NCBI GenBank assembly: GCA_000004985.1
Contig: GG738848.1
Source: Naegleria gruberi
Lineage: Eukaryota
Length of the DNA stretch: 64,000 nucleotides
Reading direction: 5' to 3' (one strand)
Under the pieces are notes generated by a model. That model was not told the origin of the DNA and searched no databases. It was given only the letters and a program-made list of their open reading frames with translations. Positions 11,446 through 47,695 of this stretch are shown piece after piece. A program made the position numbers and the translations under genes. Numbering within the stretch: the first letter of the stretch is position 1; the number at the start of each line of letters is the position of its first letter.

Positions 11446-14142
11446 TTAGGTCTTTTTCTTCTTCTTTACACCACCAGCATCAAATTGAATGAATTGTAAT
11501 TCATACCTAGGAATTCTGAAATGCATAAATGGCATTCCAGCATTAGCAGCTTTGTTATTTGTTGAATTGTTATTTTGGTTTCGTTTTCTCTTCTTTTCCA
11601 CTGGTTGAGTAGTAGTGGTAAGAGGAGGTGTTACAGATTTGGTTTCTGATTTGACATTCGTATCAGTAATGTTATCAACTTGTCCTGAGGCAACTATACT
11701 ACTGCTACTACCAAAATTGGACATTGGTTGTGCATTCATACTCACAAAAGATGAGGTCAAATTGGAATTAACATCATTATTTTGAACATAGTTCCAGAGT
11801 GGATCAATATTTGGTCCTACAAGGGAGTTGGCAATGTCATTATTAACTGAGAGTAAGGAGTGTGGTTGTTCATCAGGATTGACAAGATCGAAATTGAAAT
11901 CTCCATCATCAAAAAGAAGAGCAAATGAATCATCAACAGAAATTGACATTCTATGTGACGCCTTTCTAGCCATAGTGACTGGAGCAACGGATTTTCTTCT
12001 GTATGAGGAAGGTTGTAAGAGAATTGAGGTTTTGTGAATATTCTCAATTTCATCCAATTTTTGTTCTTGGACGAAAATAGAGAGCAAGTCACAAACAAAG
12101 CTCAAAATTTGTTCATCTCGCTCACTAAAGTTACCTGTATGCTTGTTCAAAACTTCTAAAACTCCTACAAATTGGTTTCCACTTCCAACTATTGGAGAAC
12201 AAATAACACTCTTTGTTGAAAATCCTGTTGTTTTGTCCACTTCTGGTGCAAATTTAGAATTACTCCTCACATCAGGTATATTCACACTCTTTCCACTTTG
12301 GAAGCATGATCCTGCAATCCCTCTGTCAGAAGGAATTCTAATTTCATCTTCGCCAATTGCAACTTGTGAAATGAGCTCGTCTGTTTGTCTATCGTACATG
12401 AATAATGTTGTTCTTTCTGCATGTAACATTCTGGTAATACATGAGATTATGTGTTGGAAGAAAACTCCAACCGAGTGCAAGTCCTGTCTTAGAACAGATA
12501 AACGTCTATAGACACAACCCTTCTCTGTTGTTGACTCTCCAATTTTAACATGGTTTTCTTTCTTTTGGGTATTGTTGTTATCTCCTCCATTTTCAGCACT
12601 ATTTTCAACAACTGGAGTTGTTGATGAGGATGCAACCTTTTCTTGAGGCTCAATTCTAAAGAATGAAGGATACATATCCATAGCATACCTGGTTGGGAAG
12701 GCAGCTGGTGGAGTATTCTCTTCACCCCACAATTCAAAGGTTTGGGTCAATTCGTGTCTGTCCTTTTCTTCTGTATTGGAGGTTGTTTCTGGGTCACTGC
12801 TGGATACTTCTTTTTGAGGTGGGAATTTGTAGGTGTTAAGAGTTTCTTCGTCCTTTTTAGGTGGTGGGAATGTAAAGGCAGTAAGGGATTGATAAATATC
12901 ACCCTTTGGAGTGCCATTAGCAGAACCATTTGTACTATTTGGTGTTGAAGGTTGAGAAGTGGAAGTAGCGGATGGTGGCAGCATTGAGCCCATCATTTGT
13001 TGTTGACTTTGAATTGCTCTTGAAATAATATCAGGATTGCTGGAAATGTTGATATTATTGTAGAGATCTAGCATTTTTAGAACTTGTTCATATTTAGACT
13101 TGGCAAAAAGTAAGCAATGTTCTGCAACAACTGCTGTTCCGTATTGTTGAGCTTTGGCCCATTGTTGAAAAACGTTATCCACAGAAAGAGTTCCAATAAT
13201 AAATTCTTGGCATTGACTGAGAAGTGCACTCAGCTGATAGAATTTAGCTGCTTGATAAAGATCCCAAATCTTGTCAGATCTTAGAATGGTACAGTCAGTA
13301 TAAACAAATTCCAAAATATTATAGAAAATATCAGCAGATGCATCTTGAATCTCAATTTCCAAAATGGATGTATTGGAACATTTGACGAGAATTAGTTGAT
13401 TGAAATAATTACTCCTAGCACATAAAATTAATTTGTGAGCATAAAACTTCTTTCCTTGAATAATAAACGTCACATCACTTAAAATTGGATTATTAAAGAA
13501 TTGTTTGATGCTTGATCCCATGGTGTTACTCTTACTAATAAATGTTTGAGCTGTGGACTCTGTTATGGAACTTTGCCCCAATCCAGCCTGTCCTGCATTG
13601 TTAGTGGAACTAGAGGATGTAGAAACTGGTGATTGTGTAGGTTGTTGTATCTGCAAGATGCTTGAAGAGTTGGGAGAAATTTGTTGCAAGTTATTGTTAT
13701 TTGAAAGTTGATTTACGACCATATTCGAAAATTGATTATTCATGGGTGGTGAGGATACTTGGATTACTTGTTGATTTGAATTTTGTTGATTTAACAATTG
13801 TTGTAGCATGTTTTGTTGTTGATTTGTATTGTTTTGTTGTTGGTTTTGTTGAATAAGATTCATCAGGTTGTTGAAAATACCCATTGCTTGCTGATTATTA
13901 TTGTTAGAGGGTGATGGTTGGTTGTTTTGCATTTGTTGTTGTTGTTGGAAGAGATTGATTATACTATTCATGTTGTTATTACTATTACTATTGTTCTTCA
14001 TCATGTTGAGAAGCGAATTGATCTCATTCATTGAATTATTACCATTATTATTATTGTTGTTATTGTTGCCATTGTTATTATTCATCATCATAACTAGAGC
14101 ATTCAATAACTGTCCCGAATTTGCCTGATTATTCGGTAACAT
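11446..14142 (-). CDS. Poly-N/Q-rich regulatory protein with a BTB/POZ domain and a cNMP-binding-type GAF domain (NKFDE-like signature); 898 aa
   Basis: ATG at 14142. There are long Asn and Gln homopolymer tracts at both ends. The BTB fold reads DVTFIIQGKKFYAHKLILCARSNYFNQLI. The GAF domain reads LFMYDRQTDELISQVAIG...GIAGSCFQSGKSVNIPD...SPIV..NQFVGVLEVLNKHTGNFSERDEQIL, and the NK..FSE.DE motif matches the cyclic-nucleotide-binding GAF signature. The composite upstream region (14143..15111) may hold 5' UTR exons. Confidence 0.7.
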   Translation of the reverse strand: MLPNNQANSGQLLNALVMMMNNNNGNNNNNNNNGNNSMNEINSLLNMMKNNSNSNNNMNSIINLFQQQQQMQNNQPSPSNNNNQQAMGIFNNLMNLIQQNQQQNNTNQQQNMLQQLLNQQNSNQQVIQVSSPPMNNQFSNMVVNQLSNNNNLQQISPNSSSILQIQQPTQSPVSTSSSSTNNAGQAGLGQSSITESTAQTFISKSNTMGSSIKQFFNNPILSDVTFIIQGKKFYAHKLILCARSNYFNQLILVKCSNTSILEIEIQDASADIFYNILEFVYTDCTILRSDKIWDLYQAAKFYQLSALLSQCQEFIIGTLSVDNVFQQWAKAQQYGTAVVAEHCLLFAKSKYEQVLKMLDLYNNINISSNPDIISRAIQSQQQMMGSMLPPSATSTSQPSTPNSTNGSANGTPKGDIYQSLTAFTFPPPKKDEETLNTYKFPPQKEVSSSDPETTSNTEEKDRHELTQTFELWGEENTPPAAFPTRYAMDMYPSFFRIEPQEKVASSSTTPVVENSAENGGDNNNTQKKENHVKIGESTTEKGCVYRRLSVLRQDLHSVGVFFQHIISCITRMLHAERTTLFMYDRQTDELISQVAIGEDEIRIPSDRGIAGSCFQSGKSVNIPDVRSNSKFAPEVDKTTGFSTKSVICSPIVGSGNQFVGVLEVLNKHTGNFSERDEQILSFVCDLLSIFVQEQKLDEIENIHKTSILLQPSSYRRKSVAPVTMARKASHRMSISVDDSFALLFDDGDFNFDLVNPDEQPHSLLSVNNDIANSLVGPNIDPLWNYVQNNDVNSNLTSSFVSMNAQPMSNFGSSSSIVASGQVDNITDTNVKSETKSVTPPLTTTTQPVEKKRKRNQNNNSTNNKAANAGMPFMHFRIPRYELQFIQFDAGGVKKKKKT

Positions 14143-17497: not shown

Positions 17498-17642
17498 AAA
17501 AACCCTCATTGGGTATTGATCGTGACAAGGGCTATCCCGGTGTCAACATGTTAAATTATCGCCACCTTCCTGGCCGATCAAATGACACCGTCGTCTATTA
17601 AGCCAATATAATACTTACAGATATTTTCGATCTAGGGTGGGG

Positions 17643-28897: not shown

Positions 28898-30241
28898 ATG
28901 AATAGAATTTGCGCTGTTGCTTTCCTCATCGCAGCCTTGTGTTTGGTTTCTGTGGCTTTTGCCTCTACTGAACAAAAGAGTTTCCATCAGAGAAATCCAT
29001 GTTATAGAAAGGATAAACGTTATGATGGTTCCGATCCACGTTATGTCAAGTCTGTTATCAAAACTCCTAGACCACACGATATTTATGCTCCACAAGATCT
29101 TCCATCTTCTTGGGTATGTTTTTATAGCAAATGTAGTAATTTGTATTTATCAAATGATTCAAAAATCGACGATTGATTGGATGATTTTTGTGTGGATGAT
29201 GAAAATTGTGTGGATAGGATTGGAGAAATGTTAGTGGTGTTAACTATTTGTCTGTTACTAGAAATCAACACATTCCAACATATTGTGGAAGTTGTTGGGG
29301 TATGTTTAATAGTATTTAAATTGTTTTTTCTAATTTTCAAAAGCTCACGGAAGTACTTCTGCTTTGGCTGATAGAATTAACATTGCCAGAAAGGGACAAG
29401 CTCCACGTGCTCTCCTCTCTGTTCAACACGTTATTGCTTGTGGTGATGCTGGAAGTTGTGAAGGTGGTGATGATGTTCGTAAGTGTCAAATGTAATGATT
29501 AATTAATATTAATACGTCAACTATATAGCTGTCTATCAATATGCTCATGATTATGGTATTCCTGATGAATCTTGTAACAATTATAAGGCTCAAGATCAAG
29601 ACTGTACTGCTTTTGCTAAATGTGGTACTTGTAATTCCACTGGATGTTCTCCAATCACAAACTTCAAGAGATGGAAGGTTGGAGAATATGGTAGCATTGA
29701 TGGTGAACATCAAATGATGTCTGAAATTTTTGCTCGTGGTCCAATTTCGTAAGTATATTTAATTGAATTTCCAAAACTGAAATAATTAGTTGTGGTATTG
29801 GTATGTTAATTTTGAATTTAATGAAAATTAATTGTAATTAGATGCTACTAACAAGTTGGAAGCCTACACTGGAGGTATCTTTGAAGAATTTGAAATCTTC
29901 CCAATGATTAATCACATCATTTCAGTTGTTGGTTGGGGAGAAGAAAATGGAAAGAAGTATTGGATTGTTAGAAACAGTTGGGGCGAACCATATGGAGAAC
30001 AAGGTATGTAATAATAATATAATAATAATTAATGATTATCATCTTGAAATAATGATTTATAATTATTATTTTGAAATAATTGCTCAACTACTACAGGATT
30101 CTTCAGGTATGTTATCATTATTTTGAAATAACTAAATTTTTACTCAATTATTTAAATTTTAACAGAATTATTAGAGGTACCACAAGATTCTACAATTTGG
30201 CAATTGAAACACAATGTGCTTTTGCTGTACCAATTGTTTAA
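28898..30241 (+). CDS. CTSZ: Cathepsin X/Z-type papain-family (C1) cysteine protease, 303 aa, 8 exons; join(28898..29113,29218..29299,29344..29478,29529..29748,29790..29800,29842..30003,30097..30106,30166..30241)
   Basis: A signal peptide [22 protein letters not shown] is present. The spliced product has [45 protein letters not shown] with the active-site Cys, [24 protein letters not shown]...[21 protein letters not shown]...YNLAIE and the C-terminal FAVPIV. Every junction uses GT...AG and all exon phases close. Exon 5 is 11 nt (TTGTGGTATTG) and exon 7 is 10 nt (GATTCTTCAG). Introns measure 104, 44, 50, 41, 41, 93 and 59 nt. Confidence 0.8.
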
Positions 30242-30590: not shown

Positions 30591-31019
30591 ATGGGTGAAT
30601 TCGTTTGCATAGAAAAGGAAGACAACTCATTCTCTGACATTAAAATCCCAACATTTAATGAAATTATTGCACACAACATTAACACAGAATGGGCCAAACA
30701 ATGTTGCCAAATTTTCACTGAATTTGGAAAGAAAGCAAGACGTGAAAGATCAGATGTTAAAGAATTTGTTCTATTTAATGTGAGAACAATTGGCAAATAT
30801 TTAACTGAACTCGCGTTGAAACAAGAGACAGTTGAAACAATTAGTCAACCAGAAGAAATTAGAAGACATCATCAAGAAATTCAATCACTTCTCCAAGAAT
30901 ATATTGATGAGTTGACTTCAAAGATTGTTGCTGTCATTGCAGAGAAATCAGAAAGCGAGATTAAGACCATCATTAATGAAGGCACTGGTGCGGATTATGG
31001 AATTGGTGGTGAAGAATAA
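30591..31019 (+). CDS. Hypothetical protein, 142 aa
   Basis: ATG at 30591. It is a clean ORF with an eukaryote-like context and no recognisable domain. Confidence 0.35.
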   Translation: MGEFVCIEKEDNSFSDIKIPTFNEIIAHNINTEWAKQCCQIFTEFGKKARRERSDVKEFVLFNVRTIGKYLTELALKQETVETISQPEEIRRHHQEIQSLLQEYIDELTSKIVAVIAEKSESEIKTIINEGTGADYGIGGEE

Positions 31020-42429: not shown

Positions 42430-45400
42430 ATGAATTCTAGAAACATCTACAGCAACAATGCAGGGTCGGTTGTTGGCTCAGATAGTTCTCAAGAATCACA
42501 CAATACTTCCAGCACAAATTCTTCATCATTTCAACACAAAATACGAGTGGAAGTCTTTAACTTTTTCTTTGCCTCACAGAATGTATCTAAAAAGCAAGGA
42601 GGTAAACGATTTTTTGCAATCCTATTATTGTACATACTAATTTATTGGAGTTATATATGGCTTCCTGTATTAAGCCCACAAGATTTTCACTTTGGTGCTT
42701 GGGGTTCATGGATATTTTCAGTATTTAACTATACAACAAGTTTATCAATGGATTTACTTCCGTATGAAGGAGCAATTGCTGTGGCTAGTATAACCATGAC
42801 TTTTATTGCAATAACCGTTTGTATTACTATTATTACTCTGTGGGCTGTAAAGTCTACTTCTCAATACATTAAGAAGATTCAAATGATTCTTCACATCAAT
42901 GCCTACTTAATAATAGTACTCTCTGCTCCTATAATATTTATTTTGACTAGTTTTGTGGATTGTGATTATGGATACAACCCAAGAGAATCATTGATAAATT
43001 TTGTATCTCACCATGCTAATGGTACTTCAATAAGTTCAACAGCAACTCTCACACCCATGCTCAACAGATTTACAAGCATGGAATGTTATTCAACAAATAA
43101 CATCATCTTGATGGCTGTCACCCTCTCATTCATTGCCTTATATTTTGTATTGTGTGTATTGGCCAACTTTTTGGTACCAAATTCACATCCATTAAGCTTT
43201 GCCCCAATGATAACGGAGGGTTACATCTTTCCTATTGGTATGAGTTTGGGAAATTGCATTGGAATTTTGGTACATTTCCTCATACCAGCAGAGTATGCTT
43301 TTGTGAGGTCTATTGTACATTTAGTATATGGCATGTGCATGCTTGTTGTTATTATGAAGAGTTTGCCAATGTATAGAAGATATGAAAACACAATTGTATG
43401 TGGAGTGGTATGCGCAAGATTTGGCACATCAATAGGAAGTATCATTTCCTTTTTTGTAAATGCATCGAACACTGCTGAAATTGGTATTGGAATGTGGGCT
43501 TTAACAACAGGACTGGCTGTTGGATTGGGTTTAGTGGGAGCTGTATCTATGGATATTTATACTCGTTACGTAATTTACTTTATCAAAACTAGATATATCT
43601 TATCAGTAAGATCATCTGATAGATCACTTGAAAAGGAAGCAACAAATATTTATTTCAAATTGGAAGAGGATGGAACCATGTACAAAATGATGTTATATAT
43701 GAGATTTGTTTTAATGAGATATGCTAGAACAAAGACAGAGGAATTAGAAGACAAGTACGACTTGGTTGCATTGATTTCATTCATTAGAGGAATAAGCTCT
43801 CAAAAGTGCTTCAGCGATATTGAACTGTTATCTATGGCTGGAACACTTGTTGGTTATCTGATGGTTGATGAAATGCACTCTTCATATTTTGCTCAAGCTT
43901 TGCTAAAGAGGGCTCTTAAACAGCGACCAGATGTCTATAAAAGATTCCTCATTCATCAAAGATTAAGGGAAGTAGAATTAACAGGTGCTGATGATGTTAA
44001 GGGAAGTAGAACCGTGCTTGAGTTGAAATCTATAATGCTCAATATTCAAAAATATATTACTGAACTCACTTCGTTACATCGTCACTTCTGGAAGGAATTG
44101 ATGCAGGAAATTGTGAACTATGAAAAGGCAGAAAATATAGTTGCAAGATGCTCTGTTATCAACCATGAATTAGATTCCATGTTCGACAACATTTTATCAC
44201 TGTACTATAATGACAAAACTGTACTGAGAACTTATGCCAGCTATTTAGAAAATTTCAAATTCAACAAAGAGCTTGCCAATGAATATTACACAGAAGCATC
44301 AAGTTTGGAAGAAGAAGAATCAAGGATTCCTCTCGCTCAAAAAGGTAATAGAAGGACAAAGAACAAGGTATTCCCAGATGTTCAGGAAAGTGTGGACATA
44401 TCTAAAAAGCTAGGCCCAAAAGGTTTGGCCGTTGGTAGAAGTGTTGCATTTGAAAATTTGGAAACAGCAAGTTACTTGTCTAGCAATATGGATTTTAATG
44501 GGGTTGAGAATGCTAATGCTGATACAAAGAGAGAAATTGGGTTTAGAAATGCCCTTTCTCTTCCTGATTCACACACCATTCACATTATTACTTTCGTTTT
44601 CTTTATTGTATTTGCTTTCATATTATTAGTTGTTGGTTTGGTTATTGGCTTACAATTCTCCAAAGGTGTAACAATGAATGTTGTTAATGTAATTGAAGCT
44701 TGCTCTCCAATATGCGCCTTGAGCAATGTTTTACAATCTGTTCGAGCATTCCAAATGCATTCAATGTTCAACTCTACCCTTGGCTCTTCCAATATTCCAT
44801 TAACTTTAACATCAGAGTCCTACATTGATTTGGCAAATACTAAGATTTTAGTTTCCAAATTCAAAGATATTCTTGTAAATCTGCAACAAAAAGCCTACAA
44901 TGCCAAGTTCGATGGAACTGTTTATTCAAATTATCATGAGGTTTACAGTGAAATTTACATGCCAAACATTGGTGATGATTCAAAATTTTATAACCACACT
45001 ACAAAGATCAATGTGACAGTGACAGATGTAACCAATACCCTTATTAAGATTTCTGATCAAATTATCAATTCAAAGGAAAATGATATAACTAAAACACTGA
45101 ACAGTTATGGATTCATGTTCCTTTACATCAATCATGAATCAATTACAGACATATATGACAAATTTTGTAATATCTTTACTGATTCTGCCAAGACTGAGGC
45201 CCTAGCAATCAACAATATCTTCACGATATATATTTCTGTGTCTCTGGCCACGTTTATATTGTGTGGAGCACTTTACATGATATTCTCAAGAAAGGAATTG
45301 ACAGTTGTTAGGGAGCAAATCAAACTCATTCAACATAATGTTTCCAAGAATGAAATTGGTAAATTATTCCATGATTTGGGTAAAAAAGTTGGTGACGAGG

Positions 45401-47695
45401 TTTCAATTCACATATCTAGAAATTCTCTATTCAAACCAAAGAATGCATTCTTGATCGTTTCTGCCTTTTTAATTATTATTGTTTCAGTGAGTTGTGGAAT
45501 TTACCTTGACCAAACTTTGGGTAATTCAACATACAGTTTTGAATCATACATTACAATGGAGGATGGTTTCGATACAATGACTCACTTGCAGTATGTTTCC
45601 TTTATTGGAACAGAGTATTTTTCACATGTAACAACAAGTATTGTCGGTTCTGAAACGTTACAGCTACTTGATGATGATGAAGTAGAAGCAATGGAGGACA
45701 AATTGTCTTATCTTACAAAGCAATTGAGATATTTTTGGAATCTGTGTATGTATGGTTCTTCAGTTAAGGCATATGAAACTCTTGTGGTTGGTATGTTCCC
45801 AGAGACTGATCAAATGATTAGAGGTTCTGTGAATTGTACTGTTGAAAAGTTGTCTGAAACCTATATTGCTGGAGGTAACAATTCCACAACATGTGAAATG
45901 GGCATTGACTATATGGTACAAGATACCATTCTAATGATTTACAAAATGGTTCAAGATTTGGAAGGTGTTCATCATTCCAAGGGTAAAACATCAATATCCA
46001 CTCTGATTGATTTATTGAATGATTATTTTAAAATCAATTATATGACCAAGACCATTTCCTTAAAGTTAATTGAATTTTCCAACATTTTTGCTGTCAAGTC
46101 ATCAACTCCTCTATTGAACAACATGATTGGTCTGGCAGTGGTTGGATTTGCAAGTAACATAATTTGTGCCATATTAATGTTCCTCTTGTTGAATAATCAT
46201 AGAAGAAGTGCATTTGCAATGAGAGGTTTATTCAACTATCTTTCCATTGATACATTGGAGAATAATGAGAAATTGAGAAACTATGCTCTATACCATACTC
46301 TTGGAGACAATGTACTTTCTAAGCTCAAGACAAAGAAACAAACTCAAAACGGAGAAGATGCTAAAGTCAGATCCATTTTGAATGCTGCTGTTGATGGTGT
46401 TGTACTTTGCTCTAGCTCTGCAAGTATTGATATTTTCAATCCAGCAGCTCAGAGAATGTTTGGTAATCAACAAGAAGATGTTATTGGCAAATACATTTTC
46501 ACTCTATTTGCACCACAGCATCATGGAGAAATTAGAAAATCAATTGAGGGAATGAAACATACTGTATCAGCCAATGATTCAAAGGGAGAAACCTTTGAAA
46601 TTGAATGTATAAGAAAGAATAATACTACATTCCCAGCTACGGTCAATATTTTCGTAACAATTTTCGACAAGAAACCAATCATTACTTGTTTTATCAAGGA
46701 TATTACTTCAGAGAAGAAGGTATGTATTTAATCAAGTAGTTATTTTAATTTACTTTTTACAATAATAGCACAATTCATTACTTGCTGAGGAAAAGAAGAA
46801 TTCAGAGACCTTATTGTTGAATATTTTGCCTGGAGCTGTTGCTTCGAAACTTAAATCTGGAGCATCTCTTATTGCAGAAAGATTCCCAGATGTAACTTGT
46901 TTCTTCTCAGACATGGTTGGATTTACATCACTCTCTTCCAAGTTGACTCCCAATGATCTAGTCCAAATGCTTAATAGTATTGTTATGGGATTTGATGATT
47001 TGATGGATAAATATCACTTGGAAAAGATTAAGACTATTGGTGATGCTTACTTTGCAGCAGGTGGTTTGCATGATTTGAATGCTCAATCTGATCACCCGGA
47101 AAGAGTTTTGAGATTTGCTATTGATACCTTCTCTGTCATTAGAGCCTACAATTCTGAGCATAGAAAGGGAAGAGTAAATGAACAAATCAATATTAGAATT
47201 GGTATAAATACTGGACCAGTTGTAGCAGGTGTTATTGGTCGTAAGAAGTTTGCCTACGATTTATGGGGTGATTCAATTAATACAGCCTCAAGAATGGAAT
47301 CTAACAGCAAGCCTGGAAGAATTCAAATTTCACGTTCGACCTATGAGAGAGTTCACGATTTGGGATTCACCTTTGAAGAAAGAAAGATTGAAGTGAAAGG
47401 AAAAGGTTTAACTCAAACTTACTTACTAGATGCCAAACATCATCAATCTGCTGTACTAACAGAGGAGGAGCTTACTGTAACTATAACAACCAATCAAGAT
47501 CACTATCAAGATGCTGATATTGAGCTAGAAGAAAATGAGGAGAGTTACCTCGAATTGGAAAAAACACATTTAGAAAAACCAAGTTTGCCTGTTGGTCAAT
47601 CAATGACATTTGGAAGTGTCAGTGAAATGAGTGATGAGCCTAATCCAAAAACTATTCCAACGATTCCAACAATCACAACAACAGAATTTGAATAA
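42430..47695 (+). CDS. Large polytopic membrane protein with C-terminal PAS domain and class III nucleotidyl cyclase catalytic domain, about 1738 aa; join(42430..46719,46769..47695)
   Basis: ATG at 42430. There are at least 10 predicted TM helices in several clusters. The PAS-like block is ILNAAVDGVVLCSSSASIDIFNPAAQRMFGNQQEDVIGKYIFTLF. A 49-nt intron runs AAG|GTATGT...AATAATAG. The cyclase motifs are LLLNILPGAVASKL, DVTCFFSDMVGFTSLSS and IKTIGDAYFAAGGL. Confidence 0.8.

Follow-up and report, generated by a model that had tools for sequence, protein, structure and literature searches.

The window analysed here, 64,000 nt of Naegleria gruberi contig GG738848.1 (assembly GCA_000004985.1), has the composition of AT-rich eukaryotic DNA, with a G+C content of about 34%. 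At 28898..30241 on its forward strand lies what we take, with a probability of about 0.9 and from sequence evidence, to be the N. gruberi cathepsin X (cathepsin Z/P) gene NAEGRDRAFT_62623, built from eight exons that include two constitutive micro-exons of 11 and 10 nt. Of the two, micro-exon 1 is the more certain. The exons and introns are arranged as follows:

28898..29113, + strand: exon 1, 216 nt; start codon, signal peptide, short propeptide with a conserved Cys (NPCYR), start of the mature enzyme (LPSSW)
29114..29217, + strand: intron 1, 104 nt, GTATGT...TAG, phase 0; specific to N. gruberi among the six genes compared
29218..29299, + strand: exon 2, 82 nt; begins DWRNV, holds the mini-loop HIP and the catalytic Cys
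29300..29343, + strand: intron 2, 44 nt, phase 1 in A100; common to N. fowleri
29344..29478, + strand: exon 3, 135 nt
29479..29528, + strand: intron 3, 50 nt, GTAAGT...TAG, phase 1 in P145; common to the corrected N. fowleri model
29529..29748, + strand: exon 4, 220 nt; its 3′ end is ...ARGPI followed by TC
29749..29789, + strand: intron 4, 41 nt, GTAAGT...TAG, phase 2 in S218
29790..29800, + strand: micro-exon 1, 11 nt, TTGTGGTATTG; completes S218, codes C219-G220-I221 and opens D222
29801..29841, + strand: intron 5, 41 nt, GTATGT...TAG, phase 1 in D222; found in N. gruberi only among the six genes
29842..30003, + strand: exon 6, 162 nt; INH (catalytic His), VRN (catalytic Asn), SWGEPYGEQ followed by G
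30004..30096, + strand: intron 6, 93 nt, GTATGT...CAG, phase 1 in G276; one codon off an N. fowleri intron
30097..30106, + strand: micro-exon 2, 10 nt, GATTCTTCAG; completes G276, codes F277-F278 and opens R279
30107..30165, + strand: intron 7, 59 nt, GTATGT...CAG, phase 2 in R279; specific to N. gruberi
30166..30241, + strand: exon 8, 76 nt including the TAA stop; starts with the rest of R279

Joined in frame, the eight exons amount to 912 nt, which comprise 303 codons and the TAA stop and yield a product that ends in ...AVPIV. All seven donors read GTATGT or GTAAGT, and every acceptor is AAG, TAG or CAG. Micro-exon 1 is preceded by ...aattAG and micro-exon 2 by ...tacAG, and both are followed by GTATGT. 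Both segments are micro-exons as defined by a length of at most 27 nt between a 3′ AG and a 5′ GT (TAG, 11 nt, GTATGT; CAG, 10 nt, GTATGT). The range that had drawn attention to this gene, 29749-30165, begins where intron 4 begins and ends where intron 7 ends. For the coordinates, sequences, canonical AG/GT sites and flanking introns of 41-93 nt that the initial annotation gave for the micro-exons, every base matches (the four introns are 41, 41, 93 and 59 nt long). Its further claim, that the phases of the eight exons close to give 303 aa collinear with cathepsin Z, holds as well: the chain stays in frame, and the alignment to human procathepsin X (1DEU) is gapless through both micro-exon junctions, with GEPWGERGWLRIV as the human stretch at micro-exon 2.

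A database search and a residue-by-residue check showed that the 303-aa product is 100% identical over 100% of its length to EFC49183.1 / XP_002681927.1 / UniRef100_D2V1L9, which GenBank names only 'predicted protein' and UniRef names 'cathepsin X'. When the public protein was spliced exactly back onto the window, exons 1-7 were placed uniquely, both micro-exons included. Because the identical product can be obtained from the window DNA solely via both micro-exons, the public model must already contain them; both N. gruberi micro-exons are thus already known, in the gene model deposited with the 2010 genome. The remark that automated gene callers miss exons this small is consequently inapplicable at the N. 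gruberi locus, although it is apt for the relatives, since the N. fowleri and Willaertia magna annotations each lack one cathepsin X micro-exon. In the literature, we found nothing specific on Naegleria micro-exons or on the structure of the Naegleria cathepsin X gene.

The comparisons support a cathepsin X/Z orthologue (MEROPS C01.013-like, papain family C1A) as the predicted product. Its top database matches are named cathepsin X/Z. Among structures, it matches human procathepsin X 1DEU with E = 8.3e-111 (373 bits) and mature cathepsin X 1EF7 with E = 4.6e-104, and the next papain-family structure, DPPI, follows at 127 bits. The Pfam domain Peptidase_C1 (PF00112) covers residues 68-293 (E = 8.5e-51, 173.6 bits). 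The motifs NQ...CGSCW, INHIISV and VRNSWG are identical to those of 1DEU/1EF7, so the catalytic Cys, His and Asn and the oxyanion-hole Gln are present.

According to a review, the hallmarks of cathepsin X are a mini-loop that gives carboxypeptidase specificity and a very short prodomain of about 38 aa that is tethered to the active site by a Cys (PMC13257197). In the N. gruberi protein, the three-residue mini-loop between the oxyanion Gln and the catalytic Cys has the same length as in human QHIPQYCGSCW and keeps His-Ile-Pro. The prodomain is short too, with about 44 residues from the predicted signal peptide to LPSSW, and NPCYR aligns with QTCYR of 1DEU. Overall, the protein aligns collinearly with cathepsin X/Z (CTSZ) of humans and mammals, all the way from the Cys in the propeptide to the PIV at the C-terminus, and shares the catalytic Cys/His/Asn, the mini-loop QHIPxYCGSCW and the short propeptide. 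There are also differences: the human enzyme has an integrin-binding RGD in the propeptide and an ECD, whereas the N. gruberi protein has RYDG and QDC instead, and a 5-residue loop before YNLAIE is deleted relative to human cathepsin X. We predict a secreted or lysosomal papain-family cysteine carboxypeptidase, a prediction included in the probability given above for the gene as a whole.

Both micro-exons code for residues in the core of the protease fold. Micro-exon 1 contributes S-C-G-I-D to the conserved GPISCGI(D/M)AT strand, and micro-exon 2 contributes G-F-F-R to the conserved G-aromatic-hydrophobic-R-I motif just past the catalytic Asn. An intronless environmental homologue that is 73% identical (L007) reads GPISCGI... 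and the micro-exon-2 region contiguously.

The initial annotation had argued that these conserved blocks need both tiny exons, and the ranking of exon chains by a profile HMM bears this out. For two regions, 29529-30003 and 29842 to the stop, we enumerated every GT/GC-AG exon chain with at most two introns and scored the in-frame, stop-free candidates with an HMM built from 65 homologues of 255-325 aa, leaving out the Naegleria and Willaertia genome models. The first region yielded 31,349 chains and 2,680 scored candidates. The micro-exon chain 220/11/162 ranked top at 241.4 bits, followed by a 5-nt variant of micro-exon 1 at 228.5 bits, and the best chain lacking a micro-exon reached 206.6 bits. 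In the second region (10,178 chains, 3,506 scored candidates), the micro-exon chain 162/10/76 again came first with 144.5 bits, ahead of 134.7 bits for the second and 129.7 bits for the best chain lacking a micro-exon. The advantage over the best model without it is therefore 34.8 bits for micro-exon 1 and 14.8 bits for micro-exon 2, and for neither did this exhaustive enumeration return an equal or better model that does without it. Micro-exon-free models that use other donors or acceptors, retain introns or skip exons were each lower-scoring or truncated.

The arrangement is also far beyond chance. Given the base composition of the introns and the space available, an AG, 11 nt, GT segment coding S-C-G-[IVLM]-D in phase is expected about 2e-6 times. 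For an equivalent 10-nt segment coding G-[FWY]-[FLIMV]-[RK], the expectation at intron composition is about 6e-4. A premature stop results if one of the micro-exons is skipped or if any one of introns 4-7 is retained. As neither 11 nor 10 is divisible by three, a functional protein requires that both be included.

An in-frame model without micro-exons, the outcome that the initial annotation had named as contrary evidence, does exist in a formal sense for micro-exon 2, and it defines an alternative in which this exon is unused. Exon 6 would be extended by 4 nt to 30007, and the donor at 30008 (GTAATA) would be joined directly to 30166, so that one 158-nt intron is removed and a 301-aa protein reading ...GEQGIIIRG... 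is made. This chain is in frame and free of stops, and it is the top scorer among the models lacking the micro-exon, but it is clearly inferior, falling short of the micro-exon model by the 14.8 bits given above. It loses G-F-F-R, although the motif G-[FWY]-[FLM]-R is kept in N. fowleri, both W. magna genes, the environmental homologue, whale and sea anemone. In addition, its donor departs from the GTAWGT of all seven other donors, and it leaves the perfect AG, 10 nt, GTATGT arrangement, with its low chance expectation, unexplained. We consider it highly improbable.

It is also conceivable that the micro-exons are regulated cassettes, with skipping leading to a frameshift and a premature stop that lowers cathepsin X output through unproductive splicing. 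Their lengths would suit such a role, since without one or the other the protein is cut short, at 220 or 300 residues, and ends in an aberrant tail, and both exon skipping and intron retention have been detected in N. gruberi transcriptomes (PMC6142364). However, about two thirds of exons have lengths that are not multiples of three by chance, we see no sign of skipping at the N. gruberi locus, and the splice sites are of consensus strength. Moreover, retention is reported to dominate over skipping in short-intron organisms (PMC6142364). Regulated use thus seems distinctly improbable to us. A decaying pseudogene or an annotation artefact, in which the apparent micro-exons would be a by-product of forced homology, is scarcely credible in view of a frame that is intact from ATG to stop, seven consensus splice-site pairs, the conservation of the catalytic and structural cysteines, all of them, the high identity to human cathepsin X, and an HMM score of 490.9 bits, level with that of intact relatives. 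The reading that we prefer is thus an intact cathepsin X gene with two constitutive micro-exons.

RNA-seq data for N. gruberi are deposited as ENA PRJEB23822 (PMC6142364). In JGI metagenome and metatranscriptome contigs, the spliced-junction strings of both micro-exons were not found. An exact protein look-up had no encoding contig on record, and the protein cluster is single-member, with neither a Logan nor a transcriptome source.

The cathepsin X genes of the relatives provide a broader view. The proteins of N. fowleri FDP41_002916 and of W. magna ABK040_006711 and ABK040_004368 are 73-76% identical to that of N. gruberi, and their genes contain micro-exons at other positions: N. fowleri has three (8, 18 and 12 nt), and of the two W. 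magna genes, ABK040_006711 has one of 24 nt and ABK040_004368 one of 4 nt. Introns 5 and 7 of N. gruberi are absent from N. fowleri and both W. magna genes. The public N. fowleri model (FDP41_002916, 290 aa) has the 8-nt and 12-nt exons and lacks EGGDDIP. An 18-nt exon lying between cattAG and GTATGT (L001:3716-3733, N. fowleri contig VFQX01000068.1) brings back EGGDDI(P), and the chain that includes it is the best of 154 in-frame candidates (319.9 vs 292.2 bits). The corrected N. fowleri protein is 296 aa long and its score rises from 455.6 to 483.7 bits; the 8-nt and 18-nt micro-exons are consecutive, and the 12-nt one comes in addition.

A similar omission affects the public W. magna model ABK040_004368 (231 aa), which reads into an intron and acquires a false SWVSTIFLSF tail. 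Here a 4-nt exon, ATGG, between tatAG and GTAAGT (L006:2306-2309, W. magna contig JBEGDK010000026.1) restores NSWGSEYGENGFFRIV...AVPVV and the stop, so that the catalytic-site NSW motif and the whole C-terminus are back in a protein of 257 aa. The chain with the ATGG exon is the best of 5,984 candidates, at 145.5 bits, compared with 117.7 bits for the top chain that has no more than one intron, and the score of the full corrected protein increases from 402.8 to 453.5 bits. The N-terminus of ABK040_004368 looks truncated as well, with no signal peptide.

The N. fowleri gene is probably the orthologue of the N. gruberi gene. The BTB/GAF neighbour upstream of cathepsin X in N. fowleri matches window 11725-13572 on the minus strand with 69% identity, 16 kb from the N. 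gruberi gene. Comparison of the two loci indicates loose synteny with rearrangement. The downstream guanylate-cyclase neighbour of N. fowleri shows weak matches at window 43021-45420 on the plus strand. Cathepsin X of N. fowleri occurs on two contigs (VFQX01000068.1, L001, and VFQX01000031.1, L002) with identical product and exon structure and different upstream neighbours, which may reflect a recent duplication or redundancy of the assembly.

To place the introns, we compared six genes, each mapped onto its own genomic DNA (N. gruberi, N. fowleri, the two W. magna genes, whale CTSZ and sea anemone), and read intron positions from gapless alignment of the relevant regions. Introns 1, 5, 6 and 7 occur in N. 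gruberi only, and introns 2 and 3 are common to N. fowleri. Intron 4 (GPI/SCGI, phase 2) has the same position and phase as introns in whale CTSZ (L005:7057-7447) and in a W. magna paralogue (L006:2076-2116). This shared position suggests that intron 4 is probably ancient, though it could be a parallel gain. Because intron 4 is shared with whale CTSZ and intron 5 is confined to N. gruberi, micro-exon 1 would have arisen when the lineage-specific intron 5 was added 11 nt downstream of the old intron 4. Micro-exon 2 has a lineage-specific intron on either side, and around it the intron positions differ strongly from one homologue to another. Such a mixture of old and lineage-specific introns agrees with a published figure, according to which an estimated 30-50% of the intron positions in N. 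gruberi are common to other supergroups (PMC3174169).

Across the six genes, eight distinct intron positions fall inside the 13 codons NSWGxxxGxxGFFR (window 29950-30180; L001, L003, L005 and L006 in the homologues), and intron 6 of N. gruberi and an intron of N. fowleri have the same phase and are exactly one codon apart. This stretch may represent a hot spot, rich in AG/G proto-splice sites, at which introns were gained or slid. It is tempting to go further and regard the heterolobosean (Naegleria, Willaertia) cathepsin X genes as a hot spot where introns have recently been gained or have slid, repeatedly making lineage-specific micro-exons of 4-24 nt. We offer this as a tentative idea, at rather less than even odds. 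If it were true, micro-exons would be systematically under-annotated in heterolobosean genomes (two of the three other models examined are wrong from missed micro-exons), and the N. gruberi pair would be one visible case of a genome-wide feature.

The idea that the micro-exons stem from the duplication of an adjacent intron is not supported. Using local-alignment scores against dinucleotide shuffles, introns 6 and 7 gave p = 0.02, uncorrected over 21 pairs, and introns 4 and 5 gave p = 0.46; once the 21 comparisons are corrected for, no significant similarity between introns is left. Introns 6 and 7 have in common an 18-nt near-identical stretch, AT[T/C]ATTATTTTGAAATAA, of which the last 15 nt are identical.

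Several other repeats and candidates were noted in the window. A 27-nt tandem duplication with 81% identical copies lies inside intron 6, at 30021-30074, and an 18-nt tandem repeat, GATGATTTTTGTGTGGAT / GATGAAAATTGTGTGGAT (83%), lies at the end of intron 1, at 29180-29215. The motif TTGAAATAA has 3 copies within 90 nt of introns 6-7, one of them at 30123-30131, and 9 in the whole window vs 4.2 expected. A scan of the window for further micro-exons, with the pattern GTAWGT...YAG, 3-30 nt, GTAWGT, turned up a candidate at 45764-45790 on the plus strand, which was rejected since it sits within a continuous ORF, and another at 17619-17631 on the minus strand, which was rejected since its surroundings look non-coding. 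An intronless ORF of 141 codons, beginning MGEFVCIEKEDNS and ending ...GIGGEE before its stop, is found at 30593-31018 on the plus strand, some 350 nt beyond the stop codon of cathepsin X.

How might exons of this size be spliced? The introns flanking the micro-exons (41 and 41 nt for the first, 93 and 59 nt for the second) each have their own strong GTAWGT 5′ splice site and a YAG 3′ end. What is generally known of splicing suggests that introns as short as these (41-93 nt) would be recognised singly by the ordinary U2-type spliceosome, through intron definition. A stretch of 10-11 nt leaves no room for the complex of 3′ splice site and U2 together with the downstream U1 snRNP. Since both complexes cannot be held at once, the two introns around each micro-exon are most likely removed in succession.

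For the N. gruberi locus itself, little is at stake, given that the model already holds both micro-exons and that exons of such sizes are well documented across eukaryotes. The practical value of the comparison is modest and lies with the relatives, where more recent automated annotations missed the 18-nt micro-exon of N. fowleri and the 4-nt micro-exon of W. magna, leaving one protease without the conserved EGGDD(I/V)P and another with a false C-terminus. The gene is also a clean example of an intron position common to an excavate and mammals that stands beside lineage-specific introns.

Compared with mammalian CTSZ, whose 6 exons measure 108-180 nt and include no micro-exon, the N. gruberi gene is distinguished by its two. 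Micro-exons are reported to challenge the splicing machinery (PMC8378409), and constitutive ones as small as 1 nt are on record in Arabidopsis (PMC4674806) and in Fusarium CYP621A (PMC12940212); at 10-11 nt, the N. gruberi micro-exons are well above this minimum. The micro-exons described in other eukaryotes likewise measure at most 27 nt, have canonical sites and are required for the reading frame of a conserved protein, and gene callers often overlook them (PMC4674806, PMC12940212, PMC8378409, PMC7935315). Animal neuronal microexons (at most 27 nt) differ in other respects: they are alternative, mostly multiples of three, located in long introns and dependent on SRRM4 or PRP-40 (PMC8378409, PMC7935315). 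In contrast, the N. gruberi micro-exons are apparently constitutive, shift the frame if skipped and lie between very short introns.
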